A stretch of DNA of 64,000 nt from a virus (IMGVR_UViG_3300036766_001106:6984-70983); one strand, 5' to 3'. Positions 83-62,252 are shown, numbered from the stretch's first letter. Numbers and translations: made by a program. Notes: generated by a model not told the origin, from the letters alone.

Positions 83-691
83 ATGACCAGACGCAAAATC
101 CCTGACGTTCTCCTGGCGGGGGAACAAGAGCTTATCCTGAAACAGTTCCTTGGGACCGACGAGGGGAACGGCCACCGCCGTGGCCGGCCCCTTAACCCCT
201 TCACCCGGCTCCGCAACCTCTGCCTGGTGCGCCTGATGCTTAACTCGGGGCTTCGTTGCTCGGAAGCCTTACACCTACGGTGCCGGGACCTGGAGCCTAC
301 CACCGGCAGGCTCAAGGTGCTGGGGAAGGGGAAGAAGGAGCGGATGCTTTGGCTCTGTGAGGCCGATGTCAACCTTCTCCTGGGATACTTCGACAATCAC
401 CCCGGGAACCCTGAGGACTTTATTTTTACTAACCTCAAGGGCGGGCCCTTGAAAGGTCGGTATGTTCGCTGGATGGTGGGTGAGGTGGCCCGGGCCGCCG
501 GGATCACCAAGAATATTCATCCCCACAGCTTGCGGCACACCTTCGCCACGGACCTGCTGCGGGCCACCAAGAACCTCAGGGTGGTCCAGAAGGCCCTGGG
601 GCATGAGAATATCGGGACCACGCAGATTTACACGCACATCGTGGATGAGGAATTGGAGGATGCAATGAAAAACTTTAGGAATGGAGGGTGA
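83..691 (+). CDS. Xer-like tyrosine recombinase/resolvase (catalytic domain only)
   Basis: GLRCSE, KGKKER, HPHSLRHTFAT, LGHENIGTTQIY motifs; SD GGGGAGG precedes ATG at 83. Confidence 0.92.
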   Translation: MTRRKIPDVLLAGEQELILKQFLGTDEGNGHRRGRPLNPFTRLRNLCLVRLMLNSGLRCSEALHLRCRDLEPTTGRLKVLGKGKKERMLWLCEADVNLLLGYFDNHPGNPEDFIFTNLKGGPLKGRYVRWMVGEVARAAGITKNIHPHSLRHTFATDLLRATKNLRVVQKALGHENIGTTQIYTHIVDEELEDAMKNFRNGG

Positions 692-692
692 G

Positions 693-926
693 ATGGGTAA
701 GGCACGCGTTAATGCACCAGCAGAAATATGTCCATGTTGCGGGAGAAGGATTCCTGGCTCTGCCAAGTCGAACAGGGATAAAAGGGACCTTGAAATCTTT
801 CGGCTCTACAAACATGGCCATTCCTATAGGTTTCTGATGGAAAAATTTAATCTTTCGGCGAGTGCGATTCGGTGGGCTATTCGCAGGGGGGAACGCAGGG
901 GGGAAGCCCTGGCGGCTACGGCTTAA
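693..926 (+). CDS. Small HTH regulator (Mor/C-like) with a CPCC motif
   Basis: RDLEIFRLY..GHSYRFLMEKFNLSASAIRWAI helix-turn-helix pattern; SD GGAGG. Confidence 0.6.
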   Translation: MGKARVNAPAEICPCCGRRIPGSAKSNRDKRDLEIFRLYKHGHSYRFLMEKFNLSASAIRWAIRRGERRGEALAATA

Positions 927-4105: not shown

Positions 4106-4525
4106 TCACGATCTGCTGGATCGTGTAACGCCGAGCTTGAATAGTTCAACGATCTGGATGGCTCCGGCTATCTCGGGGGGGATTTCGCCGCCCGCCGCGT
4201 CGATTTCCCGGACATAGGCAGAGAGCCTATTCGCGTTGACGGACTCCTTCACCATGTCGTCATAGCCGATGGCTCGGAACCCGCTATCCAGGTCGGCCTC
4301 GTGACCCGGGATACAACTGGCCCGGAGCTCGCGACGGGGGGAGATGGTGAACCTCCCTGTATCGGTTTCGACCTTGAGGCTGGCGATCCCCTCATCTCCC
4401 ATGCGCTCAAGCAAAGACCTTTCCATTTTGGCTTGTTCTGTGGTTAATTTCTTGACGGTAGCTTCTGCGTCACGCCTTTGGGCTACTAGGACCGCGTAGT
4501 TCCGTGCTTCTTCGGATAATGTCAT
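4106..4525 (-). CDS. Conserved phage replication-module protein
   Basis: SD AGGAGG; N-terminal coiled coil; gene context. Confidence 0.6.
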   Translation of the reverse strand: MTLSEEARNYAVLVAQRRDAEATVKKLTTEQAKMERSLLERMGDEGIASLKVETDTGRFTISPRRELRASCIPGHEADLDSGFRAIGYDDMVKESVNANRLSAYVREIDAAGGEIPPEIAGAIQIVELFKLGVTRSSRS

Positions 4526-4546
4526 ATATCCTCCTTTGGGCGGTCA

Positions 4547-4729
4547 TCAAGGAGCTTTTATCAAAGGTTGAGAATCTTGAGAGAGAAGTTCAGTTTTTGA
4601 GGCAAGGTCGCCAATAATTTCTCTTTCCCTTGCCTCAATCATTTCCACAAGGCAATTTAGGAAAATCTGATCCATTGCCGTGTGAGGCTTCAAAAGGATG
4701 CTCTCACTGTCCAGTTTTGTTAATTGCAT
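4547..4729 (-). CDS. Hypothetical protein
   Basis: SD AAGGAGG; operon context. Confidence 0.55.
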   Translation of the reverse strand: MQLTKLDSESILLKPHTAMDQIFLNCLVEMIEAREREIIGDLASKTELLSQDSQPLIKAP

Positions 4730-5359: not shown

Positions 5360-5627
5360 GAAGTTTTTATTTCATTAAACGCTTTTTTTTGGTTGACTTT
5401 TTGGCACAGATGACTATAAGATGACTCCTAGGGATTTTCGGAAGCTATTTTTAGGGAATCCCTAATAGCAATTAAGGGGGATAATCATCTAAAATAGGAG
5501 GAAGGCGCATCGGCGCCCTCGGGAAAAAATGCTGGAAACTTTAATTTCATCAAAATCAACATCAAAATCAATTAAATCAAGGAATTATCTTGACAGGAGG
5601 TTGACTAATTGGCTTATAATTGGCGCT

Positions 5628-6245
5628 ATGATAAACGAGCGTATCCGAGCGTTAATGCGGGCGCGGGGCTGGAAGATCAAGGATCTGGCCGACGAAATCG
5701 AACGGCTGAGCCCTGCCCAAAAAATTCATCAATCTCAACTCTCCCGGATGCTTGCCGGCAAACGCCAGTGGCTCATGCCTCACTTGGAGATCGTGGCAAA
5801 AGCCCTTCGAGTACAAGTAGGGGATTTGGCTGACGAAACTGTCGCCATCCCCGTTGTTGCAGAAATTTCTGCTACCCAAAACTGTCTGTATCCTGATAGT
5901 ACTGAGGACAGAAATTTGGGGTACTTGCCACTACCACGCATCATTGCCGAAAAAAAGGACTGGCCAATGGCAGAAGAACTTTACGGGATAAGGATTAAGG
6001 ACGAGAGTTATGCCCCGGTAATCTCCAAAGGGGCGGAACTGATCGTCCAGCGCCACGGGGAGAAGAAGGAGGAGGACCTGGTAATCTATTGCGATACGAG
6101 CAACAGAATGTACCTTGGCCGCCTATTTTTTCACGAGGGCAACCTGCTGCTCCGTTCCCTCAACTCCAGCACCCAAAAAGATATGATTTTACCTCGGCGC
6201 CTGTTGTCGAACATGGACCGGGTAGTCGCCCAACTTTTCATCTAA
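5628..6245 (+). CDS. CI-like repressor (XRE HTH plus degenerate S24 domain)
   Basis: INERIRALM...IHQSQLSRMLAGKR; YGIRIKDESYAP..KGAELIV. Confidence 0.85.
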   Translation: MINERIRALMRARGWKIKDLADEIERLSPAQKIHQSQLSRMLAGKRQWLMPHLEIVAKALRVQVGDLADETVAIPVVAEISATQNCLYPDSTEDRNLGYLPLPRIIAEKKDWPMAEELYGIRIKDESYAPVISKGAELIVQRHGEKKEEDLVIYCDTSNRMYLGRLFFHEGNLLLRSLNSSTQKDMILPRRLLSNMDRVVAQLFI

Positions 6246-6724: not shown

Positions 6725-6737
6725 TATAAAAAACCGG

Positions 6738-6833
6738 GTCCGCTAAGGGGTCGGCCAACCTTGAGGCGGCGCAAGAATGAAAAAGACGGCATTCGGGTGC
6801 CCGAACACCTGGATGTCGTCTTTTTTATTGCCC
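6738..6833 (+). ncRNA. Candidate cis-regulatory RNA, copy 1 (CGGCCA-loop hairpin, GCAAGA, switchable terminator)
   Basis: Homologous, with compensatory changes, to 57315-57410 on the minus strand. Confidence 0.65.
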
Positions 6834-6845
6834 GAGTGGAGGGTT

Positions 6846-11649: not shown

Positions 11650-11942
11650 TGGAAATGACCAGCGAGAAATCCAGAATCGATGCCATCCGACGCTACCTCA
11701 AGAGCATCGGAGCCAAGACGCACAAGACCCATGGGGGACCATGCGGCCACGCGGGGGCTCCGGACATTCTTGGAGCCTATGCGGGCCGCCCTCTAGCTCT
11801 TGAGGTTAAAAAACCCGGGGGGCGGTTGACAAGATTGCAGATCAAAGAACTGGCTGAATGGGAGAAGGCCGGGGCCATATCCGGCCAGGTTGAATCGGTG
11901 CAAGATGTGAAAAACTTATTAAAAGGAGAGATCCATGGCTAA
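11649..11942 (+). CDS. VRR-NUC domain nuclease
   Basis: GAPDILG...LEVKKPGGRLTRLQ. Confidence 0.9.
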   Translation: MEMTSEKSRIDAIRRYLKSIGAKTHKTHGGPCGHAGAPDILGAYAGRPLALEVKKPGGRLTRLQIKELAEWEKAGAISGQVESVQDVKNLLKGEIHG

Positions 11943-12129
11943 AGATGAAGAGTATCGAGTGCAGGTCAATGCTGTTTTTATCATGAAGGGGAAAGACAAA
12001 ATGGACGCCTTGGGCAAGGTTACTCAGGCTATCAGCTTGCTCAGGCCGGCGGGTTGTGTGGACCGGGAAATCAAGTGGAGTGGGGTTGTTGAGCCGAAAG
12101 GAGCACCCCCGGCCCCGGAGAAGGTGTAG
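11935..12129 (+). CDS. Hypothetical protein
   Basis: SD AGGAG; operon context. Confidence 0.6.
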   Translation: MAKDEEYRVQVNAVFIMKGKDKMDALGKVTQAISLLRPAGCVDREIKWSGVVEPKGAPPAPEKV

Positions 12130-14885: not shown

Positions 14886-14933
14886 AACGAATAAAGGTTG
14901 CACTTGAACCAACTCCTTCAATATACTCTCTGC

Positions 14934-16112
14934 ATGGCAGGTCATATAAGAACCCTGCATAAATGCCCTTCCTGCGGGAAACCCTATCCGAAGGAACTGG
15001 TCTGCTGCAACACCCGGCCCACCCGGTATTTCATCGACCTCTGGTGGCAGGGCCGCCTCAAGATTTACACCGACCCCCAGGGCTACCCCCTGGACTCCTA
15101 CGCCCGGACGGAGCAACTTCTTTCCACCATCCGCCACCAGATCGGCGCCGGCAAGTTCGATCCCCGGGAGTACGTCAGGAAGGAAATCAAGGGGCTCCTG
15201 TTCGAGAATTACATCCAGACCTGGCTTGAGCGCCGGGATCTGGAGTTGGAGCGGGGCCATATCTCTAAGGCTTATATGAGAGAGGTCAGGCGATATATTC
15301 GCCTTTATTTCGTTCCCTTTTTTGAGCGTAAGAGCATCCGGGACATCCGGGAGGGGGACCTGGAGGATTTTAAAAATTCCCTGCCGACGAATCTAGCCAA
15401 CAAGACCATCAGAAATATCTTGGGGGTGCTCCATAAGATTTTTGCCGATGCCTTCCACAAGCGCCGGGACATTGCCTATCTGCCGAAGTTCCCCGAAGTC
15501 CCCAAAGACGATCCCCTGACGCAATGGCTCCCGCCCCGGGACCAGGAACGAGTCTTGCGGCGCATCAAGGAGCCCTACAAATCCTTTTTCATCTGCCTGA
15601 TGGAGTTGGGTTGCCGGCCCGGGGAACTCCGGGCCTTAAAATGGGGCCTGGTGGACCGGGAACGCCGCCTCATCACCATCGCGGCGGGCTTCGATTTGGA
15701 AACCTGGAAACCCTACACCAAGACCCGGCAGAACCGCACCATCCCCTATAATCAGAAGGTACAGGATTGCCTGGACCGGCAGCCCCGGAGCCTGACGGGG
15801 TTCGTGTTCGTGAACAGCAAGGGGAAGTACCTGTCGCACCGGCGCCTCGACACGGTATGGTTCCAGGCGGCCCGGGCCTGCGGCATCGAAGTCAATCTTT
15901 ACCAGGCCACCCGGCACAGTTTCGCCACTCAGAAGATCGCCGCGGGATTCAGCCGGGACAAGGTGGGCCAGATGATGGGCCACCGGACGGCCGCCATGAC
16001 CCAGAAATATGAGAAGGTGGTAGCGGAGAGCCTGCGGGACTTAGTGGCGGACTGTCCGTCTGGGACTGTCCGTAAACTGTCCGTGAACAAAAACGGACAA
16101 AATAAACCTTAG
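14934..16112 (+). CDS. int: Tyrosine integrase
   Basis: GCRPGELRALKW, TKT, YQATRHSFAT, MGH...TQKY; promoter TTGCAC-18-TATACT 6 nt before the ATG. Confidence 0.93.
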   Translation: MAGHIRTLHKCPSCGKPYPKELVCCNTRPTRYFIDLWWQGRLKIYTDPQGYPLDSYARTEQLLSTIRHQIGAGKFDPREYVRKEIKGLLFENYIQTWLERRDLELERGHISKAYMREVRRYIRLYFVPFFERKSIRDIREGDLEDFKNSLPTNLANKTIRNILGVLHKIFADAFHKRRDIAYLPKFPEVPKDDPLTQWLPPRDQERVLRRIKEPYKSFFICLMELGCRPGELRALKWGLVDRERRLITIAAGFDLETWKPYTKTRQNRTIPYNQKVQDCLDRQPRSLTGFVFVNSKGKYLSHRRLDTVWFQAARACGIEVNLYQATRHSFATQKIAAGFSRDKVGQMMGHRTAAMTQKYEKVVAESLRDLVADCPSGTVRKLSVNKNGQNKP

Positions 16113-19202: not shown

Positions 19203-19565
19203 TTACCCATCACGCCCTTTCAGGTAAACCACCACGGTCACGGTGTAGCCGCTCACCCCTGGGTCGCCCGAGATGGTGCATTTCAGGGTGTTTCTGCCGC
19301 TCAGGATGCGGCGGATGGTGACCCCGAACTCAAAGTCATAGTTAGCGTTATGGGCTTTGGCCGTGCCGTCAAACATCTGGAAGCCGTCTTCGTCCTCCAG
19401 GGTGAGTTGCGCCGTTCTGGAATTGGTGTTGGAACTATTGCGCTGGTGAATCCACAGCAGTTCCCCTTCCAGAGCCAGGACCAAACTCTGAATCAAACCG
19501 GCCTCGGCCGCGCCGCTGGCGAACTGGAAGACAACCTTTCTCCTAAGATAGCGTTCTGGTTTCAC
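19203..19565 (-). CDS. Hypothetical beta-rich protein, possibly a virion component
   Basis: SD GGAGGTG; GTGA overlap with the giant gene. Confidence 0.6.
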   Translation of the reverse strand: MKPERYLRRKVVFQFASGAAEAGLIQSLVLALEGELLWIHQRNSSNTNSRTAQLTLEDEDGFQMFDGTAKAHNANYDFEFGVTIRRILSGRNTLKCTISGDPGVSGYTVTVVVYLKGRDG

Positions 19566-22500
19566 AGACCCACCTCCTTTTCTTCCGGCTTCATTCGATA
19601 GCCGGTCATAAATCCAGGGCTGATTTTACGGAAACCCATTATATGCTGCCAGGCGGCCCGCTCCGCCCTTGTTGGTTTGTCCAGCAGGTTCGAGAATCGG
19701 TAAGGCTTCATCACGTCTTCCGGCTTCTTGAGAACAGGCTGGTAATCCTCCCGGGCCTGGCGGATGGTTTTGATCAGATACCGTTGGCGCTGAGCCTCGT
19801 CCATCCGCAGGAGGCGGGGGAGGTCTTTCTGGATGGAATCGTAGGCATCGCCCACGCTCTCAACGGTCATTTTATAATACTCATCTAAATCGACTGACTT
19901 GCGGGTGCCCGCCTCCGTCTTAAACCGGGGAGGCATCTGGAGGGCCTGGGCCACTTCCGGGTCCATCAAGGCTTGCCCCACCTTGGCCACCTGCACGATC
20001 TTTTCATCCAGGGCGTCCAGCTTGGTTCGTTTTTGTTCCGAAGTCAGGGTCTTGGAGAGGTAGATGGAATTCCTTTCCTTCTTGATTTTCCCCAACTCGT
20101 CTACCTTTTTGCGGGCGACCCGGGCGAACATGGCCTCGGGGTTGTCGGCCAGGAACTTATCCAGCTTATCCATGCTCCCGGAGTTCCACAGGAGCTTCCA
20201 GCCTTGGTCTGCCTGAATAGCTTTTTGGTAAGCCTCAAAGAAGTCGTTTACCGTCTTGGCCCGGTAGCCGGTGGGCGGTTTGGTGAAGAAAGCCCTCACC
20301 CCCCAGATTCTTTCGATGGTGTCTTTGGTGGGTTGGGGAATATCTTCCAGGGCCCCGGTTTTCCGCAAGAGCACGTCGATGCCTGGGAAGAAATAGTTGG
20401 CCCCCAGGCCGCCAGTCATGGACCGCACGAAGTGTTCCACCTTCACCGGGCTCAGTTCCATCATGGCGGGCGTATGGCGGCTAATGGCCTTGGCCAGTTC
20501 CGAAGTCCAGGGTTTGGCCCTCAGTTCTGCAGGGAGGTTCTGTAAGCTCGCATCCTCGATAGGGCGCCCTGTAAACCAGTTATAGTTGGCGCCACCTTCC
20601 ACGATGGGACGTACGATGGCGGGGATGAAGTCAGGGGTTAACGCCTGCCAAGCCGCCCCCAGAGCCGCTTTTACCCCGTTGATATTCTTATCGACGGCCC
20701 AATCCAGCATCCGCTCCGGTATGGACCCGAAGAGAATCCCAGCCTCGAAGGGTTTGGGGAGGCGGACCATGGGGCTGTTTTTCCCGCCCAGGGGGATGTG
20801 CCAAAAATAATTCTTCTCCCAATCCTCCAGTTCCTTGTAGCGGTCGTCTTGGTGGGCCAGGGTCCATAAAAGGATGGAGGCCGTGGTGAGCAGGGACATC
20901 CGGCGCATCACCGCCCATTTGTTAGGGCCAGAAAGCTCGGTGATCAGTTTGTCCGCTCCCTGAATGGAAGCGTTCCAGAAGGGGACGATCATATTGAGGT
21001 AGCGAACTATCGGATGCCCGCCGTGTCGAGCAAAATCCAAGGTAGTGCGCCGGGCCTCGTGAATCGCCTCGGCATGACTCAAACCCTTCTCCCGGGCCTG
21101 CTTGTAGATACTGAAGCGGGTCATATTCTCCAAGTAGGCAGAGGCATAACGCAGGGCCGCAAGCGGGTGAGCATGATAAACCATGCCTTTTTTCTTCCCC
21201 ATGATGGTCTCGCTGGTGATCTGTTCCGGATCCACAAAGGATTGAGCCAACGTCGCCAGAGGACCACCGCCGGCCTCCCACTCCCGACGATACCTCGCGG
21301 TATCTTCATCCTTGACCACCAAACTGTAAGCGTCCCTGAACCACTTGAGGGGGTTGAACCCGAACCGGCTGAAAAGATAGGCTTGAATGATGTCCCGGGC
21401 GGGGTTTCGAGCCAGGGCGAATTCCGGGGTCATTATAGCGCCAGCCCGCAACAGGTCAGCCGGCGCCTTGGCCACCTTCAGCAGAATCCCGATCTCCGAT
21501 GGCATCATGCTCTGGGTCGCCTGGAAAATGTCCGGGGGCACCTTGAGCCACAACTGCTTGCCGTCCCGGTAGTACGGAATGGTCCCAGGTTCCGGGGGGA
21601 GGGGGGACCGGGCCCAGACCCGATTCATCGCCTCCAACATCCCGGCCTGGTGAGAAAGTTTGAAGGTCAGGAGGGGCCTCAGCTTGTCGTTTTGCCGCAG
21701 ATAACCCTCAAACTTCGCCAGGGCGTTGGGAGCCAGGCGCTCCACCGACCTCTTGTCGATGATGTAGCGGCTGACAAACTCCGCCACCTGTTCCTCTTTT
21801 TTGCGAATATACCGTTTATAAGAACTGGAGGGGTTGTCGGCCCGTTGGTCGGCAATGCGGCGCAGTTCCCGCTTCATCTCCGGGGTGCCTTGCTCGATGA
21901 GCAGCTTCACCAGGCCGTAAGCGTCGTCGATCCCATGGCCCACCTCATGCGCCAGGGTCGCCTCGAAGGTGGCAAACCTCACCTGGATCTCTTTCGCCAC
22001 CTCCGACGTTATCCCGCCGGACTGAACCTCCTGGCTGAGCCATTTCTTGAACTGCCCCAGGCGCCGGCTGCGCATCGTGCCCATGACCTTAACGTCAATC
22101 CCCAGGGCCTTGGCCAGCTTGACCAGTTGGGGCCGCAACACCGCGTCGATCTCTTGCTTCTGCTTGAAATCAACCGGCAGGTACTTGGCTGCCACTTCCT
22201 TGATGTCCGGGTCGCCGTATTCGCCCAGCACCGCGATGTTTTGCACCACGTAATTCCGGGCGAAGGCGTAGTTGGCCTTGTAAGCCAGTTCGATCCACAT
22301 CTGCAACGGGTCCAGGATGACCCTCTCCGAACCTTCGATTTTTTGGATCACTCGGCCCTTGATTCCCAGGGCCGCGGCGTTGGCGTTGATGTAGTCGTCG
22401 ATGTCCTCCATCAGGCGCTTGAAGGGGATATAAAATTCATTTTTGGCTTTGATCTCATCATAACGGGCTTGGTCAATGAACCCCACCTGCAGGAGGGGTT

Positions 22501-25500
22501 GCAAGATGGTCTGGTCGCCCCATTCCCGGACGCTCCGGGCCGCAGCTTCCAGGGTTTTGAAGTCATCCCCATAGATGGACCTGAGGGCGTCCAAGGCCGC
22601 TCGGCTATCTTCCGGCCGGGTGCCCTTGATCTCCCCCGGGGCCCGGGAGCCGGTTTCTCCAGCCAGTTCCAGATCCCGTTGGGCCACCATCAGGCGGTTG
22701 AAGAGGTCGTGCATCACCTTGGGGACTTCTTCCCCCCGCTTGGCCGCCAGCTTCTTGATGGGCTCCAGGCGCTTATCCAGGCTGGCGCCCACTTCCTCGA
22801 TCTCGCCGGTGAACATCATCCGGCCGTTTTCATCCGCCTCCATGACGCTCTGATAGACATGATCCCCGGTTAAGGCCTGCCGTACTCGCCCTTCCTGGCC
22901 CCTCATGTAAGACAAGGCGTTGGTGACGCTCTGGCCGGGGCCCACAGTTATCCCCGCCTTCTTGAGTTTTTCTTCGGCCCGTTCCATGGGGGCGTAACGG
23001 TCCACCACCTCGGTATAGAATTTCTCCAAGAACCTCTTGGTGCTTCCCGGCGTCTTGGTCTTAACCGCCTTGATTTTCTCCCAGATAGTGCGCTTTCCCG
23101 ATGGCGCCAGCATCTTCCGGTCGTAGTCAGCCAAAACATTCTCGGCCTCGGCGGGGCTATAAGACGCCTGAGGTTCCCACATTGCCCGGGCCTCTTTCCC
23201 TGCCTGGCGACCTGACAACTGCCACAAGAATTCAGCCGATCCCCGGAGGTTTTCCCCACGTGAATTGATAACGTCCAACACCATCGAAGTCAGATTGATG
23301 TTATCCTGCGCCCCGGTTTCGATCTCCTGGGAGAGCATCTTGTTGACTACAGCCGTGTCCTCGGTGACGATCACCGTGCGATTAGCGTTAAAAGCCTTCA
23401 TTTCTTGCTTGAGGCTCTGTTTTACTTGCTTTACCGGCTTATCTAAGATGGTTTTATTATGGACGCTCCAGCCGTTGACCTCGTTGCCCGAAGTCAAATG
23501 GATCAGGACCACCTTGTCTTTGTCATATTTTATGGTGCTAATAAAAGCTGCCAGGTCGCTCGCATTTTTTATTATCATCCCCTTGGTATGGGCCTGTTGA
23601 AGCTCCGGCGACACCTTATAATTACCGTAATTAATGTGGTACCCCTGGCCTGGATATTCATACAGGTAGCTAAACTTCCCATGGTCGATAACCACAAACT
23701 CGCCCATGAGATTACCCAGGCCTTCGATTTCTTGGCCCTCACCAGTTTTCCCTACTACCCCGGTTGTCTCGCCTTTGGCTTCACTCAAGGACGTAAACCC
23801 ATCTCGTAGCACCCTGGCCATGGAACGGTCGGCCATGCTCATGTCGGGGCTACCGCTTGGGTGGTTGTGCAGGAGGTGAACCTTGTCAGCCCCCAATCGC
23901 TTCGCGGTTTCCTGTAGCCGGATGAGGTGTTGGGCAATATTCTTCGGTCGCACGGCATTGAGTTGACCGGAAGTGATGGCATTGTGGGCCACGATCTCCC
24001 CATTCTTTGTATAAATGGCGTGTAGAATCTCCATCTTGGGGTTACGAAAAACCTGGAAAAGCTCGGCTATTTGCTGGGCTTCTCTACCGGATTCGAGTTG
24101 GCGTCCAGACAGATCAATCCATCCCTGTTTAGAATACTCTTGAGCGATGCGGGAGCGATACCGGGCCAAAACCCCTGGCACTCCTGGGCTGGGTATTCCC
24201 TGGAGGTTTCGGTGGACTTTTTCGATCTGCCGGGCGGTTTCCTGGACAACCTGGTTTGCTGCTTTCTCGGAGCCATAGGCCAGTTTCACCTCTTCGGTGT
24301 GATGTTTGGGGGTCAGTTGGGTATAGGGCACGGTTTCTTCTGCAACTCCCGGGGCCCCGCCAAGGTTACTGCCGAAAATATTGTTGGCGGTGGTCCGGTC
24401 AGTAGAGAAAACCGTGCCGAGCTTGTAGAGGAGGCCAACGGCGGTGAGTGCATCTTCCCGGTTTTGAATGTCGCCAACCATCCGGCCCCGGGACCGATAA
24501 AATTCTCCGTTCCTGACGAGGGCCAAAAGCTCCTTGTTTAGAAAATATTTGCCCCCTTTGGCTTTCGAGGTTGGAACTTCCAGGCTATAACCCAAACCCA
24601 TTTTCCGCATGATGACTTCATAAGAGGAATCAGACATCCTCCCCTCACGCTTCAACAGGGTTTCCGCCTGCGATTGGCTTAACATCACCCTCTGCAATTC
24701 CGGGTGCTTGGACAGGTCGAAATTGAGAGGCATCAGGAAGCCGGTGGCCAGTTTGCCGTCATCCCGGGTGAAGAAGGTCATCTGTCCGGCGTCGATGGGG
24801 TTTCCCAGGAGGTTGCCAGTCACCAGGTAGCGGGTCTCGTAGGTCTGGTCAGGTAGTTTCTCGTCCCAGCTAGGGGATTGTGGAGAACCCTTCCCCCACC
24901 CATCCAAGGCTGACATTTTATATCTGGTGGTACCCGTGCTTATCCCGGCCATGGAGGTCTTGAAAATCCGCATGGTGGAGTCCACCGCCATGCTGATTTT
25001 GATGTTGCCGGGGGTGGCTGGGTTGCTCCCTGTGATTGGTTTATACTTGAGGTCGTAGATTACGCCGGCCATAGCCTGTAATTCATATTTGATCGCCGTG
25101 CCGATCTGGTACTCATCCAGGTGGCGTAAGGTGTAGGTCAGGGCCCCCCTGGCTCCCTGCTCGAATCGGTTTATCGTGTCCTGTGAGGTCCCCGCCCCCC
25201 TCATCAGGGCAATTTTTTCTGCGAGCCAAGGTTTAAATTCTTGCTGAATCTTCGTTTTTATTTCATCGGCCAGGTCTTGAGGCTGCCTGCCCTTGAGGTT
25301 GGCGTGCATCCGCTTTTCGATTTCCGCCATGGTCATGGGCTTTTTCTGGACCTTGGCTTCAACCGTCTCGAAATAGGTAGGACTGGAAAGTTCGCTTTTC
25401 CCCTGTTCGCTGCCGGCCACCAACACGGATTTACTCAGGGTCTTGGTTTGGAGGTCCAGGTGTTCGCTTTCCAGGCTGAACTCGCCGATCTGTTTTAGGT

Positions 25501-28500
25501 GCTCTACCAGGTCTTCATACTTGGCGTCGATGGCTGCCCACATTTCTTCCTGCACCGAGACCGGCTGCAAGGAGGTCCAGCCGGTGACCCGTTTGGTGAG
25601 CTTGCCGGTCTCCGCATATTGGGTAAGGATTTGGTGAATGCGGCCGTCTTTGTCGGCCTTGATAAAGTCATCATCAATGACGTTATCCAGCACCCCACTT
25701 AAACGGTCATTCAGGCTGGGATCGTCGGCGAACATCTCGGCGATCACCTGGTCGCCGTATTGATTGATGATGTCGTTCACATCCAGGGAGTAGGCGGACT
25801 CCCCCTTGGCGGAGACGTTGGCGAACAAAGAGGCCAGCTTCTTTTGGAGGATGGCCAGGGGGCGCTTCTCCCCCGGGAGGGAGCTAATTTTGATCATGTA
25901 GCTGGGTAGGTTGACCTGTCCGGTGCGGTGAATACGCCCTAGGAGCTGCACCGCCTCATTGATCTCGTTGCTCATCTGGGTCAGGATCATGTGCCGGGGG
26001 CGCTGGTCCTGGAACTTCTCGCCGGAATGAAGGGATATCCCGCTGCTCCCCGCACTGTTAATGATAAGGGCGTCATACTCCCCAGAATTGAACCTATTGA
26101 CGGGGGTATTCTTGTCGGATTTCTCCTTATCACTTCGCCTCCTGAGGATGTTTCCTTCCTGCTCCCAATCCAGGACGTGCCGTCGGCCGGTAATCTCCCC
26201 CACCTTGAACCCTTCTTTGATGAGGGCCTTGGCGATGTAGTCGATGGGCATGGCCGGCACGTCCGTCGTGGTGCTTTCAAGGAGATTTGTCAGGTTACGC
26301 CACATGGTTTGGAGGTGGGAGGGCATATCTTCAGGTCTTACGATCACTTTCTCTGGCGGAGCCCCCTGGCCATGGTCGATTCTGTAAACCAAGACGCTAT
26401 CCGCGGCCTTCCGGACCACCTGGGCGAAATTCATATTAAGCTCATCGCCCACCTTAATGGTGCCCGCCTCCAGCATATCCTTCACGAAGGCTTCCATGGT
26501 GTTGTAGCAGCCGATGGTCACTTTCTTGCCCTGCCTGAGGGCTGCCAAGGCCTCCTTGATGGTGGCGTCTGTCCGCAAGCAGAAAAGAAGCTGGGAAATC
26601 TTGTTGTGCATCACCGAAGCAAAATTGGTGTTCGAGATCCCACCCCGAAAACCCGGCTCCACTTGCTCGCCTTCCTCTTGGAAATCATCATTCAGGTCCG
26701 CTACCCATTCATTAAAGGCTTTGGAAAACCGAAGAATTTCCCGCAACCCTTGGGTCAGATCATCCGACCGTTGTCGGTCCCGGGTAATATTCTCCGTGTC
26801 CACCTCCACCGGGATGTCGATGCCGGAGAAGGAAAGTTCGTTGCGGATCATCTGGCCGCTCTGGGCCCATTGGTGGGCGATCCATTCTTGGAGGGGGACC
26901 CCGCCCATTACCAAGTTAGCAATGATGGTGTCGATGTCCACGTTGAGGTTGCCTAACTCGGTGCGATGGTACAGGGCCATGGTGTCGGGCCGTTTGGCGT
27001 AGGTGGCCGAAGAATAGATCACCCCCCGCGCCTGGTCCGTCATGTGAGCCCGGAGAAAGGCCCCGGTCTGGCTTTTGTCTCCGGCCCCCTTGTGGGACTC
27101 GTCCAGGATCAAGATGGACTGAGGCGCCAAAGCCCTTAACAGTTCCATCTTGCCGGTCATGGTCCGGCTATTTATTTGGTAATAGGTGGTGAAGATAGCA
27201 TCATAGCCAGCCGGTAGGCGGCGATTCCTGACCGCCTCCCTGATGGCGTTGAGGTCCAGGTTTCGGATCACATTACCGTTATTGTCCACGATGCGGGCCC
27301 GGTCCGGGTTGCTGGCCACGATGAGAGGATTGAGGTCGGCCTTGATGTCCGCCATATCTCGGTACATGTCTGAATACAGACCGTCGTTTTCCGTCAGGAA
27401 GATAGGGGTCAAGCCCTGGTTCTTGGCGTAACGCATGATGGCCGCTACCATGCGGCCCTTGCCCACGCCCGTCTGGTGGCCGATCACGAAGCCGCCGGTG
27501 CCGCGTTCGATGGCGTCGATAGCCAAAGCCACGCCCTCAATTTGTTCGGCCCCCAGGACCCCGAACATTTCGCCCTTGGTTTTGTAACCCAGGCGGCTCC
27601 GCACAAACTCGTCCAGGTCGCCAACCTCTTCCTGTAATTTTTTCAGGTAATTGCCGACGGCTTCGGCCATGTACCGGGGGGCCACGGTGTTCATGGCCTG
27701 TCCCTTGGAAGTGGGCTTGTAAGGCACCTGGAGGCTGGTTTCTCCGGCTGGTGTGGCCTTGGGGGGTGGAACCTTTTCTTCCTTGGCCGCAGGCGGTCCT
27801 TCCAGGATGTTTTTCACATTTGCGGGTTTGACGGTGGTGGCCCCTTCCGGCCCCTGGACGGTGAGCACCATCTTGTCGCCCCAGCCGCGCACCTTGGTAA
27901 CCTGGCCAGTTGCGCCGTCGTTGGTTTCAACCCACTGGTTCTTTTGGAAAACCTTGAGGCCCTGGCGGTCCTCATCGGAGAGCTTGACTTCTTTGCCGCT
28001 CTCGTCGATGACGCCCTGGATTTGGGAGATGGGGATTCGGCGTACGTTGCCGTCGGCATCCACAACTTCGACGGTCTGTTCGCCGTAGGGGGTTTGTCCT
28101 TGTTTGTAGGGGGCCTGCTCTTCCTTGATAGTGACGGTGGTCCCGTCAGGAAGAGTGATCTGAGTGCCGGAACCTATAGACTTAGGAGGAACTCGTCCAG
28201 GTTGAGGTCCTTCTGTTCCTGCAATTCCTCTTCCGGGCTGAGATGGTCTTCCTTCGGGTCCTGGGAGTAATGGTCCAGCAGGTCCTGCTTGTTCGCCGGG
28301 CTTGGGTCGCGGAGATACCCCAGGAGATACTCCTGCGCCCCTGTCTCCGGGGCCTGCCTGATCATATCTATTAACTCCTCCTGCTTCTCGTCCCCCGGGA
28401 GATACTGGTCCGCCACGTGGGGCCCCAGGCTGTCCAAGACCCGGTGCACTTCCTCGTCCCCCTCCTGCTTCGCCACCTTCTTCACCAGGTCTCGGACCTT

Positions 28501-31500
28501 CTCCTTCCAGACCTCCAGGTACTCCCACGCCTCCGGCCCCCTCTTCGCCACCTGGGGCAGGAGAAACACCCCCAGGCCGACCCGGGCCGGCCGGCTGTCC
28601 CTGAGAAAGTCCGGGAGCCACAATACCTTCTGCGCGGGCATCTATGTCTCCTTTTAATAACTTATAAACATCTTCAAAGGTCTTGGCAACCTCTATCTGT
28701 TCAATTTTGTAAGGCGCCGCTGCCTTATCGGGCTGAACCTTGCGGCCTTCGATGGTGATAAGGCGGATCGGAAACTTGGTGCCCATCCGCTCGTAAACCT
28801 TGCCGTCGATGTTGATGTGGTGGGTGACGTTATAGTGAGAGTAAAGATAGTTGAAAAACACCCGGTTAGCGTTGGTGAGCTTACCCATGATGCCGCCGAT
28901 AGGCGTGGCGAAGGAGTGGCCACCGATGATGAACGCTGCCCGGCCGTCATCGTCCATGGCCTGGAGAGCATCCAGGGCGATCAGGTGCTCTAGCTTGGAA
29001 ATTTTGTAGCCGTCAAAATCCACCGGGGTGTTCAGGCTGCCGAAAGGCGGGTTGGCGATCACCACGTCCACCGATTTCTCTTGCGGGCCGCCCTGCTTGC
29101 CTACCAAGCTCTGAGCGTCTTGGGAAACCACGTCGAACCCCTGGGACCGCAGATGTTCAGCCCGAAGTGGGTCGATCTCATTCGCCAAGGTCTGTTTCGG
29201 ATTCGCCCCGATCAGGAGCATACCGTTGCCCGCGGTGGGCTCGTAAACCCAAGAATCTTCGGTGATCCCAGTAACTTTATTCATCAGGTAGGCCAAGGGC
29301 ACCGGGGTGGAATAAGCCTGGTTCCTGATGGTGGTGGAGGTCCGGGAGGTGAGGGCCGGCTGCCGGTTATAGAGGTCAATCAGCTTGCGCAGAGTTCCGG
29401 CCACGTCTCCTTGGGTGTCCCCGGCCACGATGCTCCGGTTGGCATAGACCAAGGCCAGTTCTAGAGCTTCCTCGATCTGCTTGCGATAAGATGGCATTTG
29501 AAGCCACTCAGGAGGAATGTTGTGGCGTTTCTGAACCTGCTCCATCAAGTTACCGAGGCTGATGTTGCCGCGCAGGTCGGAAGTGTAGAACATCTTGGCC
29601 AGTTCCACCGTGTCGATCTTGGCGGGCCTGGGGGCAATCCCCGGGGGCAAAGGGGACTTGAGTTTGGGCGTCGGCTCCTGGTTGAACAGGCCCCCGGGTG
29701 TCCCTCCCAATCCCGGCAGGGTTCCCTGCTGCCCCTGGACCGCGGCCTTCTCCAAAAGCTGGCGCTGTTCCTCGGCGGACAGGTTCCCCCGGGCCACCTG
29801 GTCAAACATCTCCTGGTCGGCGCTCATGGCCGCAATCTGGAAATTCTCAGCCTTGGGGAAAGCCCGCAGCACCGTGGCGGCCCGTTCCCGGTCGATGTCG
29901 GGGTATTCGTCTTGGAGTTCGTTAAGGCGAGTTTCGAGCGCGGAAGCCTTGGGTTGGCCGCCGGTGAGGTCGAAGTGGGGGGTTACTTCTTCGGTTCCGG
30001 GACCGCCTTCGGTTTGAGTTGGTGCGGGCCCTGCGGCCGGAGGTGCGGGTTCTCCTCCGCGAACTTGTCCTCCAACGCCTGCGCCAGATCCAAAGGTACT
30101 TTCCCGATCTTTTTTGAGGGCTTCGGGGAGATTCTCATAAAATGCCTTCCTGATTTCCGATTTTACTGAAACATCACGCAGTTGTCCAGCATATTCCCGC
30201 AAGAGGGTATTGGTGGCCGATCCGCTTAACTTTGCAGCCTTATCGAAAAAGGCCAGGTTGGCCGCCGCCTGCTGGCTGATCATCTCGTTGGTGTCGAGGT
30301 CCAGGATGTTGCCGGCCTCGGTCAGGGTCCCAGCCTCCTTGCTAACCAGGCCGAAAAGCCGCTTATCCTTGTGCAGCTTGTCTTTGGCGTAGGTCACCAG
30401 GTCGGCGGTTTCCTCCAGAAGGTTGACCTGGAGCTCTTCTTCACCAAAGAGGTTGATCTGCTTGGTGGGCACGGTTTCGGCGGCCACGGCCAAGCGCACC
30501 ATTTCCAGGAGCTTCTTGGCGGAGATGGGCCTGGTTTCCTCCCGGTCCTTCACCATCCGATAGACGGCTTCCTGGGTTGGATGGTCCTGGGGGCCCGGCA
30601 ATTCCCGCCCCAACACCGCCGCCTTTTCCACCGGAAACTGCCCCATTGCCACCGCGGTGAAGATAGGGTCACTCAGGGCCGCCAGTTCCAATGCCTGCCG
30701 GGAGTGGCCCGGGGTCATGGACACCCCACGCTCACGCAGTTCCTCCGGAGTCAACCCCAGGTTCCGAATAGCCTTGGCCGAATCAACCGTGGTTCCGGTG
30801 CCCACCCGGATATTGGTCAGGGCCGCTTCTACCTGGGCCTGGGGGATGGAGTAATATTCGGAGTCGAAAATCTGCACCTTATGGGATTCCAACCCCACCC
30901 GGTCCCCGGCTTCCAGGCGCTGGTGGCCGTCAATGAGTTCGACCCGCCCGTCCGGGTAACGGTATAAGGAAATATCGCCGGCGCTGGCCGCTGACCATTG
31001 CCCCCTCTTGGTGATGTCTGTCAGGGCCAGCCCACCACCGGTCTTTTCCTTCGCCCCGAACTTGTGCTGCCAGAGCTCCGGGTTCAGATTGATAAGCTCC
31101 CGGGGAAAATTGGGATGATGAGATAGACCCGGTTGTTGCACCGAAGCCGTCTCACCCGAGATAAACCGTCCCGGCTGCGGGGCCCAGGCTTCACCCTGAC
31201 GGGTAGGTCTGGGCGCAATTCCCGGAGGCAGGTTGATAGGCTTCGGGGCGAAAACGGTTGGTGGAGCCGCAGGTTTCGGTCGGAGGGTTTCTGGTAGTTG
31301 AGCCTCCTGACCGCCCTCGTCGAGGTAACCCCGGACCCGAGAAATGTCGATGCGGTGCACGTTGCCGTCAGCGTCCACCACCTCAAAAGTCTGGCCACCA
31401 TAAGGAGCTTGTTCCTCTTTGACGGTAACAACAGACCCGTCCGCGAGGGTGACTTTGGTGCCTGAGCCTATGGCCGTGGGCTTGGGCGGGGCCGAAGGGG

Positions 31501-54711: not shown

Positions 54712-54741
54712 AAAAAGGGGCCCCAAGGATCCCTGGGGCCC
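54712..54741 (-). terminator. Intrinsic terminator after the capsid and decoration genes
   Basis: GGGCCCCAGG-GAT-CCTTGGGGCCC followed by CTTTTT. Confidence 0.75.
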
Positions 54742-55305: not shown

Positions 55306-56274
55306 TTACGTGCTATCGAGCCGGATGATCTTGGCTTTGCCGTCGTCGGGCAGGTTCCAGATCGACCCAAACGCGATGACGCCCCACCAGGCCATGGCCT
55401 GCACGGTGCCGAAATTGCCCTGGAAGTTGGGGTTCATCCGCAGATGCGGTGCCACCGCTTCCAGATAAGCCACCCCTTCCTTGCCGAAGACCACGCCTTC
55501 GCCAAAGACCGAAGAGGTGCCGGCCACGTTAGAGAAAGCCGCGGCGCGGTTGACCTCAATCCAACGAATCTTGTGGGTCATCCCCATTTCGTTGTTGAAG
55601 AGGAGGTCGCCTTTGCCGAGGTACTGGTGCCACTGGATCAGGCCCCGGTCATCCATCAGGGACTCGATGTTTTTGTTGCAGGTGAGCCCGATGAAGTAGT
55701 TCTTGGTGTAGAAGGGGACGTGGATGGTGTCCCGCATATACGCAGAGATGAGTTTGCAGTGGTCCAGGGTCAGGGGGGCAACAGCCAAGGCCCCCGGCGT
55801 GCCGCTCGTCGCCCAGACCCCGCCGGTCAGGGAGGTGGGAGAGAACACGACCTTCACCGCGGCGGCTTCCTGAAAGGCGTTCGCCGCCATGGTATCCATC
55901 ACCCGGGTCATCTGGTCCTGCAGCTTCTCTTTCAGGACATCGCTGGGTTTGAACACCGACAGGTTTTCCGCCAGTTCGGTGAATTTCACCCCCCGGCCAT
56001 AAGCCTTGAGGGTTATGGCCCGGTTCCCGAAGGTCAGCTTATCGGTGGGGATCTGGCCGTCCTCTTCCGTCTCGGCGGAATCCGGATCGGGCAGTTCGTT
56101 GACGTGCATCAGGTTGACCGTTTCACCGGCGTTCCGCTTGAAGCCGATGCCCTGGTCATTGGTAAAAGGGAAAACCACGCAGTCCCCCAGCACCACCTTG
56201 TAGAGCTTTTTGCTCAACTGGTGGTTGCCGAGAATCCCTGTTTTCCCAATTTCACTCCAGGTGTGAGCATCCAT
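55306..56274 (-). CDS. Major capsid protein (HK97 fold, N4-gp56-like)
   Basis: KRNAGETV, ITLKAYGRGVKFT, NFGTVQAMAWW; follows the scaffold gene; SD GGAGGT. Confidence 0.85.
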   Translation of the reverse strand: MDAHTWSEIGKTGILGNHQLSKKLYKVVLGDCVVFPFTNDQGIGFKRNAGETVNLMHVNELPDPDSAETEEDGQIPTDKLTFGNRAITLKAYGRGVKFTELAENLSVFKPSDVLKEKLQDQMTRVMDTMAANAFQEAAAVKVVFSPTSLTGGVWATSGTPGALAVAPLTLDHCKLISAYMRDTIHVPFYTKNYFIGLTCNKNIESLMDDRGLIQWHQYLGKGDLLFNNEMGMTHKIRWIEVNRAAAFSNVAGTSSVFGEGVVFGKEGVAYLEAVAPHLRMNPNFQGNFGTVQAMAWWGVIAFGSIWNLPDDGKAKIIRLDST

Positions 56275-56285
56275 CTTTCAACCTC

Positions 56286-57269
56286 CTATCCTTGTATCCG
56301 CCGTCCTTCCTGGACTTCCCGTAAGATGCCGGCGGAGGTGTAAGGTTCATTGTCGGTGTCAGTTTTCTTGGCAGGCGGGGGGCGGTTGTTGCCCCTCTCC
56401 AGCACCACGTTCCTGGCCTGAGTTTGGCGAGCCTTTTCTCGTTCCTCGTCCGTCATTTGCACCACTTTGCCGGTGCGTTTCCGGACCTCAGCCACCACCC
56501 AATCCACTTGCTCCTGAAGGGGTTTGGTGTCGTATTCCTCCGGGAGCTTTTTCCTCATGTGCTCAAATTGGACGGAGTCCACCGAGTCTGAATCAGCCAT
56601 ATCCAAGCCAGATTTGGCCGCCAGGTCGAAAGCCTGTTCCAAAATGCTCGGCGGCCTGGGTTGCCGGGCCTTTAACTGCTCTTCCACCCGGCGATCGATG
56701 ATCTCGTCCAAAGCCTTTGGGTCCGGAGCAGGTTGTCCCGCTCCACCGAGACCGGCCTTGCGCCAGGCCCGAGCCACCTTCTTCTTATATTCCGGGTCGA
56801 ACTCGTCCAGTTCGTTGATCTCATCCAGGGCGGCCTCGATCCGGCCCTCCTGTTCAGCCTCCAATTCCTCGGCAGACTTGGCCGGGGCCACCGGCTTCGG
56901 AGGCGCTGCCTCCAGCTTTTGTTTGAGATCGTCCCGTTCGCGTTCGGCTGCTTCCAGGGCCTCGCGGTCCCGCTTGGCCTCTTCCGCTTTCTCCGTGGCG
57001 AAACGCTGGTGCTCCCGGGCCCCTTCCTCCGCCTCTTCCCACGATTTGTATTTCTTCTCCGGGGGTTTGGGCGGCTCCGGAGGTTCATCCCCGGCCGGTG
57101 GGGTTTCCGGTGGGGTTTCCGGTGGGGTTTCTTCGGTGTCTGGTTCGGCTTCCGCCTCCCGGGTCACGATGGACTCGCCATCAAAAACCTGTTGGGGAAG
57201 CCCTGCCATCAGGTCAGCCGAAGAGTAGCCAACCTTCTCGATTTCGCCTTCTGCGGGTTTGTCTGCCAC
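56286..57269 (-). CDS. Scaffolding protein
   Basis: Acidic Pro-rich N-terminus, KYKSWEEAEEG, coiled coil; SD GGGAG before GTG; ETPP x3 repeat at 57095-57131. Confidence 0.75.
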   Translation of the reverse strand: MADKPAEGEIEKVGYSSADLMAGLPQQVFDGESIVTREAEAEPDTEETPPETPPETPPAGDEPPEPPKPPEKKYKSWEEAEEGAREHQRFATEKAEEAKRDREALEAAERERDDLKQKLEAAPPKPVAPAKSAEELEAEQEGRIEAALDEINELDEFDPEYKKKVARAWRKAGLGGAGQPAPDPKALDEIIDRRVEEQLKARQPRPPSILEQAFDLAAKSGLDMADSDSVDSVQFEHMRKKLPEEYDTKPLQEQVDWVVAEVRKRTGKVVQMTDEEREKARQTQARNVVLERGNNRPPPAKKTDTDNEPYTSAGILREVQEGRRIQG

Positions 57270-57314
57270 GGTGTCTCCCTTTTCTGCTGCGGGAATCCTT
57301 GCGGGCCGCAGCCG

Positions 57315-57410
57315 GGGCAACAAAAAAGACGGCAATCAAGTGATCAGGCACCTGATTGCCGTCTTCTTTGCTCTTGCGTCCTTCAGTCGTTGGCCGACGA
57401 CCGAAAGAAC
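57315..57410 (-). ncRNA. Candidate cis-regulatory RNA, copy 2
   Basis: Same architecture as 6738-6833, with covariation. Confidence 0.65.
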
Positions 57411-57429
57411 CCCAATTTTATTTTACTGC

Positions 57430-57810
57430 TCAGGCCGGAATCTCTTCCGAGGCGGCCTGTGGTTCTCTCATTAAGCTATTCAAAGGTCCCAAAGCATGAC
57501 GGGCCAGTTGCTCCGCCACCGCCGGGATAGGATCTATCTTATTCCGCCAACCAATGATGATTTTCTTGAAAGCCTGACATTGGGGGTCTGCCGCCGCCAA
57601 TTCCACCAGCCGGGTTTTTAGGGCCTCCACCACCAAGACCAAGCCGGGGTTGTCTCGTAAATCTGCTATGAGATTGATGGCCTCTACGGTAGCCTGCTGT
57701 TTCTTTAGGGCCGCCTCATTCTGGCGTTGTTCCAGGGTTTTGACTTCCCGGGGTTTCCCGGTGCCAATCTCTACGTCTATCCCGCCGGCGCCCATGGGTT
57801 GATGGGACAT
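57430..57810 (-). CDS. Hypothetical head-module protein
   Basis: TAATG coupling to the portal gene. Confidence 0.65.
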   Translation of the reverse strand: MSHQPMGAGGIDVEIGTGKPREVKTLEQRQNEAALKKQQATVEAINLIADLRDNPGLVLVVEALKTRLVELAAADPQCQAFKKIIIGWRNKIDPIPAVAEQLARHALGPLNSLMREPQAASEEIPA

Positions 57811-60229: not shown

Positions 60230-60466
60230 TCAAACCCTCCATTTGATTAACGAATAGTTCTGCCGGAACTTGTCCGAGGGGGTGTGCCGGCAAGAGGCCA
60301 GGTCGCCCGTGGGGGCTGGCGGTTCGCCGTTCCACCCGTTCTCCGGGGTGAAGATTTTCCCGTCCACCACGCTCTTGAAACATTCCCGGCCCTGCGGCTC
60401 CCCGTCGGGCCCCGTGCCCGTAAACACCTTCATGGGCCACCAACCCCTGTAACCACTGGTGTCCAT
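60230..60466 (-). CDS. Hypothetical protein
   Basis: TAATG coupling to TerL. Confidence 0.6.
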   Translation of the reverse strand: MDTSGYRGWWPMKVFTGTGPDGEPQGRECFKSVVDGKIFTPENGWNGEPPAPTGDLASCRHTPSDKFRQNYSLIKWRV

Positions 60467-61944: not shown

Positions 61945-62055
61945 ATTAAAGCGATAGCATTATAAAAGGAAAAAACAAGGGTGGAATCTACCCTTGACAA
62001 AGAATATTTTCTTTAGTATTTGGTGTTTATCTTAAAGAGATAGGAGCTATTTCTT

Positions 62056-62250: not shown

Positions 62251-62252
62251 GG

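Follow-up and report, generated by a model that had tools for sequence, protein, structure and literature searches.

A covarying three-way-junction RNA with an embedded predicted terminator in phages of Thermodesulfobacteriota

Several described systems come close to the element reported here: (i) the lambda sib/tI region; (ii) intrinsic terminators; (iii) attenuators and riboswitch platforms; (iv) the put sites of phage HK022; (v) the insulating terminators of Tn916 and pLS20; and (vi) unnamed covarying motifs from viral metagenomes. In lambda sib/tI, the terminated and the read-through transcripts differ in structure, sib being a single extended hairpin; to our knowledge, it has no three-way junction, conserved loops or alternative apex pairings. 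Regarding intrinsic terminators, PMC10325885 gives 7-9 bp as the typical stem length, states that a 15-bp stem, as in TerR of pLS20, is sufficient for resistance to processive antitermination, and points out that the G:C pairs at the apex matter for terminator strength. The put sites are described in PMC9378689 as RNAs of about 70 nt with two stem-loops and no U-run, which lie just downstream of an early promoter and suppress termination. In Tn916 (T1/canT) and pLS20 (conAn), operon terminators are described as suppressing untimely expression and having a dedicated bypass (PMC11658703, PMC8191782). Finally, 8,495 covarying motifs without a name came out of a 2023 survey of IMG/VR, and Rho-independent terminators are predicted for 1,241 of these (Fremin et al., PMC10690425).

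The DNA analysed here (the window) is a stretch of 64,000 nt, namely bases 6984-70983 of a 70,983-nt IMG/VR phage record (IMGVR_UViG_3300036766_001106) with terminal repeats. From its gene content (a CI-like repressor and two integrase-family genes), the phage looks temperate, and its virion module, which includes an SU10-type adaptor, is podovirus-like. The relevant genes are the following:

5529-6245: CI-like repressor with HTH and S24 peptidase domains
23-691 and 14898-16112: two integrase-family genes
60466-61944: terminase
57810-59975: portal
55306-56274: capsid

The virion gene block also holds an ORF of 4,689 aa (19562-33631, minus strand) that encodes a giant polyvalent protein with LPD38, Strawberry-notch-type helicase (AAA_34, Helicase_C_4) and RadC-like JAB domains. 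An N4-type hairpin promoter was discarded as an identity for the element, since this protein is polyvalent (LPD38, Sno-type helicase, RadC) and is not a virion RNA polymerase.

The initial annotation of this DNA had pointed to a set of hairpins upstream of the helicase gene and to a twin some 50 kb away. All the sequence features that it listed for both copies are present, and the twin does exist, but its inversion had gone unmentioned: copy 2 is on the minus strand and hence inverted relative to copy 1, each copy being co-oriented with its own neighbouring genes. The element copies are of 107 nt each and comprise the following parts:

6732-6838, plus strand: copy 1, full covariance-model match (111.1 and 97.3 bits in two model searches)
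6733-6739, plus strand: copy 1, 5' strand of P1, ACCGGGU, partner 6830-6837 (minimum-energy fold and covariation)
6740-6769, plus strand: copy 1, P2, hairpin with an internal loop and the apical loop CGGCCA at 6752-6757 (fold and covariation)
6770-6775, plus strand: copy 1, junction strand J2/3, CGCAAG (of the form C-GNRA-G)
6776-6829, plus strand: copy 1, P3, 24-bp hairpin and predicted intrinsic terminator with a U-run at 6821-6826; in order, its segments are an A-rich 5' base, GACGGCA, X (UUCGG, 6792-6796), GUGC (6797-6800), X' (CCGAA, 6801-6805), CAC (6806-6808), X'' (6809-6814), UGUCGUC and the U-run
6830-6837, plus strand: copy 1, 3' strand of P1, GCCCGAGU, downstream of the U-run
57310-57416, minus strand: copy 2, full covariance-model match (117.9 and 113.8 bits in two model searches)
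57409-57415, minus strand: copy 2, 5' strand of P1, UUGGGGU (fold and covariation)
57379-57408, minus strand: copy 2, P2, 12-bp hairpin with the loop CGGCCA at 57391-57396
57373-57378, minus strand: copy 2, J2/3, CGCAAG
57319-57372, minus strand: copy 2, P3, predicted terminator hairpin with a U-run at 57322-57327; X is AUCAG (57352-57356), followed by GUGC (57348-57351) and X' (CUGAU, 57343-57347)
57312-57318, minus strand: copy 2, 3' strand of P1, GCCCCGG, partner 57409-57415

Copy 1 follows a 48-aa ORF that ends at 6724 and sits 8 nt ahead of the Shine-Dalgarno sequence (SD) and ATG (6846) of an SNF2 helicase gene, whose PHROG match begins at residue 1 of that start. The helicase SD (GGAGGG) comes directly after the 3' strand of P1, an A-rich lead-in precedes P2, and TTGCCC is found at 6828-6833. 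The neighbours of copy 2 are a 126-aa ORF (57430-57810), which comes after the portal gene, on one side and a scaffold-like gene, whose GTG start is at 57269, on the other. The two copies have 83% identity over 107 aligned columns and, when they are aligned, their stem differences prove to be compensatory in both hairpins, as had been annotated. Chance would give 0.01 occurrences of the core pattern, which has 2 sites (4 strand matches); the full 70,983-nt record contains no others. The sense strands fold at -55.2 and -60.9 kcal/mol (z = -5.5 and -8.2; 0 of 200 shuffles equalled them), and the reverse strands give z-scores of -0.86 and -4.5.

At minimum energy, both copies fold as a three-way junction composed of (i) P1, formed by GGGU/GCCC plus 1-4 more pairs; (ii) P2, a 12-pair hairpin closed by the loop CGGCCA in the folds of both copies; (iii) the junction strand J2/3; and (iv) P3, with 24 pairs, the lower part of which is an A-run/U-run and the middle part GACGGCA/UGCCGUC. 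P3 and P1 stack with zero unpaired bases between them. Since the 3' strand of P1 starts right after the U-run, P1 could be closed only in read-through RNA; it would be, in consequence, the type of helix expected of sib, one that exists only when the polymerase has passed the terminator.

The claim of a conserved, covarying RNA structure was borne out, as the covariance model built from the two copies found homologues with covarying pairs, the first of them being full-length matches in related IMG/VR contigs, where they lie downstream of the portal gene by 400-600 nt. In an alignment of 42 distinct members, 94.9% of the 1,693 pair cells of the main fold are standard, a figure to be read with the proviso that alignments built with a covariance model are fitted to the modelled structure and lean toward it; when the partners are slid by 1-3 columns in the same alignment, pairing falls to 42-51%. 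Both-side changes are found in 36 of the 41 pairs, and cells with such changes amount to 393, against 117 +/- 10 after shuffling (0 of 500 shuffles attained the observed value). The picture was alike in an earlier set of 22 sequences. Besides, 67 of the 68 distinct members known form the P2 and P3 architecture independently. The fifth pair of P1 (G-C in 21 members, C-G in 13, A-U in 3 and other in 5) covaries, which indicates that P1 is a real helix; a script for P1 length gave a mean of 4.4 pairs against 3.8 +/- 0.1 with shuffled partners, but it misregistered about 15 of 66 rows and is not relied on here.

The unpaired parts are conserved as well: the loop CGGCCA is present in 40 of the 42 aligned rows, and J2/3 reads CGCAAG in 48, CGUAAG in 11 and CGAAAG in 5 of the 68 members, that is to say, it has the form C-GNRA-G in 64. 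Both sites are candidates for sensor sites, to judge from their near-invariance. Pairing of the loop with the 3' arm of the terminator or with the 3' tail was also inspected and set aside, as it displayed no covariation. On the other hand, G·U and U·G cells (220) far exceed A·C and C·A cells (12) among the 42 members, an excess which argues for selection on the fold in RNA form, or at any rate on the strand of the genes, rather than as a DNA palindrome; covariance-model scores are 70-118 bits on the forward strand and 17-41 bits on the reverse strand. The same G·U bias argues against a pac or cos DNA site, an identity that was dropped. Taken at the level of aligned sequences, these data establish a strand-specific, covarying RNA fold with a predicted terminator, decoys within its loop and a predicted closing helix for read-through RNA.

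On the transcribed strand, P3 consists of a stable, GC-rich hairpin followed at once by a U-tract, as is the case in intrinsic terminators such as TerR, and the A-tract upstream gives it the bidirectional look that intrinsic terminators may have. The longest U-run varies from 3 to 8 nt among the 42 members (median 6), and the median number of U in the 9 nt counted from its start is 8. The A:U-rich base of P3 is strongly polarised, since A is on the 5' side and U on the 3' side in 230 cells and the reverse holds in 11; this polarity goes beyond what helix stability would demand, and a U-tract requirement would impose precisely such a polarity. Going by these features, P3 would be a genuine intrinsic terminator with an unusually long stem, of 24 bp, in comparison with the 15 bp of TerR and the usual 7-9 bp quoted in PMC10325885. 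It differs from other intrinsic terminators in further aspects: (i) its hairpin is one arm of a covarying three-way junction; (ii) the sequence past its U-run pairs back as P1; (iii) its loop holds two conserved decoys for its own 5' arm; and (iv) its loop and junction sequences are conserved across unrelated phages. No consensus sigma-70 promoter was detected within or just after either copy, and no promoter-like site was seen between the element and the downstream start codons. A sigma-54-like motif noticed by eye on the reverse strand (GGCAC-N4-TTGC) was rejected, as its spacing is wrong and its positions vary.

The location of P1 brings in a processing or stability role of the lambda sib/tI kind, in which the shape of the element would be set by the fate of the transcript. 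We consider this reading unlikely. Under it, terminated RNA would end in a protective hairpin, whereas in read-through RNA P1 and the base of P3 would form a coaxial helix of about 30 bp which, once cut by RNase III or another nuclease, would part the flanking messages and make their half-lives differ. As in sib/tI, the terminated and the read-through structures of the element differ and sequence past the terminator pairs back. The 3' strand of P1 lies beyond the U-run, P1 covaries and stacks on P3 without unpaired bases, and the element is found mostly right before highly expressed genes (capsid, scaffold), where a stable 5' structure would help; moreover, lambda int is described as retroregulated from a downstream site (PMC5300877). 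The covariation of P1 shows that selection acts on the read-through form, and a role in processing or stability accounts for this no worse than conditional termination does. Against such a role, the A-U polarity of the P3 base (230 to 11) is a need of terminators and not of nuclease sites, and the CGGCCA loop, the GNRA strand and both alternative hairpins would be left unexplained.

These alternative hairpins are of two types: (i) alt-A, in which five or six bases of X in the 5' arm of P3 pair with X' in the loop, around a GNRC tetraloop (UUCGG/CCGAA in copy 1 and AUCAG/CUGAU in copy 2); and (ii) alt-B, in which GGCA, the four bases just 5' of X, pairs with UGCC at the apex. The tetraloops of alt-A are GUGC (39), GAGC (12), GGGC (8) and GGAC (2). 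Alt-A has at least 5 bp in 42 of 42 aligned and 64 of 68 distinct members, nearly always Watson-Crick. In 22 sequences its pairing is 95.5%, with 37 both-side cells against 9.4 +/- 3.3; in 42 sequences the pairing is 86.3%, a lower value that is due to insertion columns, with 60 both-side cells against 17.4 +/- 3.7 and slid controls of 22-46%. Since alt-A is absent from the covariance model, its covariation constitutes independent evidence. Alt-B is fully paired (4/4) in 40 of 42 aligned and 62 of 68 distinct members and its variants covary (GGCU/AGCC, GGCC/GGCC, GGUC/GACC), its column support being weaker than that of alt-A: one varying pair, and 8 both-side cells against 2.0 +/- 1.1.

The hairpin with the GUGC loop, which had been described as mutually exclusive with the long terminator stem, is thus real and covarying, but it excludes only the upper third of that stem. 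When alt-A is forced, the lower 16 pairs of P3 beside the U-run persist, and the fold is weaker by 3.5-15.9 kcal/mol (mean 9.3) among family members and, in the window, by 10.7 (copy 2) and 11.5 (copy 1) kcal/mol; alt-B takes just the top four bases of P3, GGCA. When prefixes of the two window copies were folded, alt-A in no case came out as the minimum-energy state, and alt-B did so in one copy. In consequence, the alternatives would be at most transient intermediates or factor-stabilised states, and not an equal-energy antiterminator. A plain toggle between terminator and antiterminator, as had been suggested, does not follow from a hairpin that spares the U-proximal stem and is some 9 kcal/mol weaker. 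In other words, the element resembles attenuators and riboswitch platforms in that mutually exclusive helices share one strand and both are kept by covariation; it departs from them in that the competition from its alternatives reaches no further than the upper and middle 5' arm, neither of them sequestering a strand of the U-proximal stem, and in that no sensor domain or leader peptide is evident.

A small-molecule riboswitch with the three-way junction as its aptamer is, in our opinion, barely plausible. A junction with conserved loop and junction bases and an embedded terminator is what such a riboswitch would look like, but the neighbouring genes are structural and not metabolic or transport genes, P1 would close only after the terminator, and the alternative folds leave the U-proximal stem unfreed. 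Other identities considered and dropped were a retron non-coding RNA (there is no reverse transcriptase), a tRNA-like substrate of RNase P, and hammerhead or twister ribozymes, whose junction sequences, as we understand them, do not fit.

As for the distribution of the element, 13 of 36 related records searched in their entirety contain it. The rebuilt covariance model gave 12 further strong matches among 96 metagenome or metagenome-assembled genome (MAG) loci, the MAG titles naming Thermodesulfobacteriota, Desulfobacterales and Syntrophobacterales; among sampled Thermodesulfobacteriota genomes, 4 of 151 had one match each, and the three new ones adjoin head or packaging genes. A first, loose DNA pattern returned mostly chance matches (true members at 5 of 80 loci), and two stricter patterns returned loci that were confirmed as members in 14 of 14 and 59 of 62 cases. 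In total, the family has 68 distinct sequences, which come from uncultivated phage contigs and Thermodesulfobacteriota MAGs. Neither copy had a blastn match among GenBank phages (50,697 records).

The initial annotation had not recognised a named family, in agreement with a cmscan-type check against Rfam 15 in which the whole window gave 0 matches at gathering thresholds; at E-values up to 10, only chance-level hairpins of miRNAs and small RNAs appeared, the best of them with 10-23 bits. A search of literature full texts found no description of the element, which may sit unnamed among the motifs of PMC10690425: like those candidates, it comes from the IMG/VR collection, covaries and bears a terminator. 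The six supplementary files of that survey that were searched, among which its alignment files do not figure, contain no match. The element is, apparently, an RNA family without a name.

Records and MAGs have mostly one copy, two being the maximum seen, in this phage, its close relative and one other contig. In the latter (G201, the record of locus L337), the copies are at 4490-4591 and 11996-12105, in the same orientation and 7.5 kb apart, and one of them is just upstream of the major capsid gene. The helicase-side copy was found only in this phage and in one near-identical relative, which was also the only phage matched in a search with the helicase protein. In a quick tree (107-column alignment, moderate support), copy 1 groups with the terminase-portal elements of other phages (SH-aLRT 90) and copy 2 falls in the portal-scaffold group (SH-aLRT 80), a placement which suggests that they are not recent duplicates of each other. 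To state that the element gates both replication and capsid genes was an overstatement, as the helicase side concerns two phages only and the usual home is the virion/packaging operon.

A survey of gene context covered 49 loci outside the portal-scaffold site. The downstream gene is labelled as capsid, portal, large terminase, scaffold, protease or major tail at 22 of them and as "HNH endonuclease" or "protease, other" at three, the remainder being unlabelled. The upstream stop codon lies 0-55 nt away at 47 loci and 149 nt away at the other two, and the next ribosome-binding site is often within about 5-25 nt of the element. At 37 loci there is a PHROG-matched flanking ORF on the strand of the element (the scan covered mostly the ORFs of that strand), and wherever flanking genes were identified the element is on the gene strand. 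Altogether, it occurs in at least 10 gene contexts and, since the flanking terminase, portal and capsid families vary by locus, in unrelated head modules. Element-free syntenic relatives have 31-88 nt between the small ORF and the scaffold gene in 7 of 10 cases, and other inserts in the other three. At the level of gene order, therefore, the element is demonstrably optional and modular. At three of 26 newly surveyed loci (L390, L389 and L397), the immediate neighbour of the element is an HNH or homing endonuclease gene.

Such a distribution would also be that of a functionless, selfish or recombination-prone cassette that passes between phages with common hosts and is tolerated, late transcription being indifferent to terminators. 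Its presence varies among syntenic relatives, the phages that carry it in at least 10 gene contexts have terminase, portal and capsid genes of unrelated families, and copy 1 groups with terminase-portal elements from elsewhere (SH-aLRT 90). This explanation is nonetheless very unlikely: the near-invariant loops and the stems that covary with a G·U bias point to purifying selection on the RNA fold, the element is always on the gene strand where flanking genes are identified, there are only 1-2 copies per genome, no transposase is present, and there is no target duplication. A target-site duplication had been considered for copy 2 and was discarded, as the hairpins that flank this copy already exist in element-free relatives. 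By the same criteria (1-2 copies per record or MAG and no target duplication), the element is not a MITE-like mobile repeat either.

Two other readings rest on the arrangement and context of the copies. The first of them is a cis-acting processive antiterminator RNA of the kind of HK022 put or Tn916 canT, with P3 as a part of a fold that binds RNA polymerase. Like putL and putR (PMC9378689), the two copies are related folded RNAs in one phage, on the gene strand, in opposite orientation and with compensatory stems, and there are further terminator-like sites in the late operon (61976-61996 and 54718-54741). However, the element is a three-way junction with a canonical terminator, located at varied positions deep in late operons, in contrast to put as described in PMC9378689, so that it does not qualify as a put site; moreover, the majority of genomes contain a single copy, which is often close to where the head gene block ends. 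We hold this reading to be quite improbable.

The second reading starts from the position of the element directly after a stop codon. A hairpin, a single strand and a Rho-independent terminator with a long U tail after a stop codon make up the known architecture of small RNAs derived from 3'-UTRs, and the element shares it. Processing upstream of P1/P2 and termination at P3 would release an RNA of about 100 nt, which would use its CGGCCA loop and CGCAAG strand either for base-pairing with a conserved target of the host or the phage or for binding and titrating a protein. The loop and the junction strand are nearly invariant even though the phages have unrelated head genes, which suggests a shared partner on the host side. 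On the contrary, P1 requires sequence past the terminator, and the tight spacing to the next ribosome-binding site suggests action in cis; a small RNA is thus improbable.

The best explanation of the element would be a cis-acting structured RNA of about 107 nt in polycistronic mRNAs of phages whose hosts, the Thermodesulfobacteriota, are bacteria of the sulfate-reducer type; it probably controls the amount of transcription or of message passing into the next gene. Going one step further, we tentatively favour, with a confidence somewhat short of even, a conditional, bypassable terminator or insulator module; that termination is conditional, and what would set the condition, is what we infer. 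According to this model, host RNA polymerase leaving the upstream gene would meet a strong stop right before a virion or packaging gene (here, a helicase gene too), and the downstream genes would be insulated or attenuated unless the polymerase were termination-resistant or the folding of the hairpin delayed. As RNA emerges, alt-B and alt-A, being small conserved hairpins, would fold first, and the true 3' arm would have to displace them, a fact that would provide a kinetic or factor-stabilisable handle on the speed of terminator nucleation. During productive infection the element would be bypassed, and in read-through transcripts the closing of P1 and of the A:U base of P3 would yield a compact junction directly before the next ribosome-binding site.

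By analogy, the insulating terminators with a dedicated bypass found in other mobile elements follow a logic that matches a conditional terminator, the element being likewise a predicted terminator inside the operon of a mobile element. In Tn916 and pLS20, however, terminator and antiterminator are separate and here none was found: a search of the window for an antiterminator yielded only a sub-threshold, Mor-like activator. It is also counter-intuitive for a conditional terminator that a strong stop should precede capsid and scaffold genes, which need the highest expression. A more specific version of the conditional terminator, which we regard as doubtful, is a horizontally exchanged "conditional stop" cassette whose junction (CGGCCA loop and GNRA strand) docks a host or phage factor, or contacts RNA polymerase, and in which staged strand exchanges (alt-B first, then alt-A, then the long stem) set the moment of terminator nucleation. 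If this were true, the same 107 nt would stop an unmodified polymerase and let a late-phase polymerase pass, and the element would represent a new class of late-gene checkpoint RNA specific to Thermodesulfobacteriota phages.

In any case, the interest of the element lies in the following aspects: (i) it is an RNA family from phages of poorly studied, uncultivated hosts, with 68 sequences, three covarying helices and two covarying alternatives; (ii) its anatomy is unusual, with a terminator placed within a three-way junction, decoys in the loop for its own 5' arm and a closing helix past the U-run; (iii) it offers a compact test bed for the tuning of termination by co-transcriptional folding; and (iv) its optional presence at varied gene junctions provides natural comparisons with and without it, and suggests that unrelated phages with common hosts exchange regulatory cassettes.

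Several minor observations deserve mention. The Mor-like protein referred to above is encoded by an 81-aa ORF (681-926, plus strand) that matches the Mor transcription activator family with 24.0 bits, just below the cut-off of 24.9, and is a candidate late-gene activator on the basis of this match. The minus-strand late region contains further intergenic hairpins that resemble intrinsic terminators, at 54718-54741, 61976-61996 and 62241-62262 (all on the minus strand), the first of which brackets the scaffold-capsid block together with copy 2. The DNA methyltransferase gene (N6_N4_Mtase; 62253-63947, minus strand) has a LAGLIDADG_3 domain mid-gene, which may be an intein or a homing-endonuclease insertion.

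Copy 2 is flanked by two tandem hairpins with covarying stems (57286-57312 and 57432-57458, both on the minus strand), one within the final codons of the small ORF, the other just ahead of the scaffold SD. They have a common conserved loop of 13-15 nt, CCCGCAAGGAUWC-like, with a CC-GNRA-GG core plus GGA, are also found at loci L131, L145, L132, L133, L171, L189 and L202, and persist in relatives irrespective of whether these have the 107-nt element. We presume that they may be a protein-binding operator for scaffold translation, either through a CsrA-like GGA motif or through scaffold autoregulation.

Finally, a tandem 12-nt repeat (GGGGTTTCCGGT-like; 57100-57135, plus strand) within the scaffold-like gene repeatedly encodes PETP units, and a 36-nt inverted repeat with 81% complementarity joins 11902-11937 and 28639-28674, separated by 16.7 kb and including an SD-ATG-like end.
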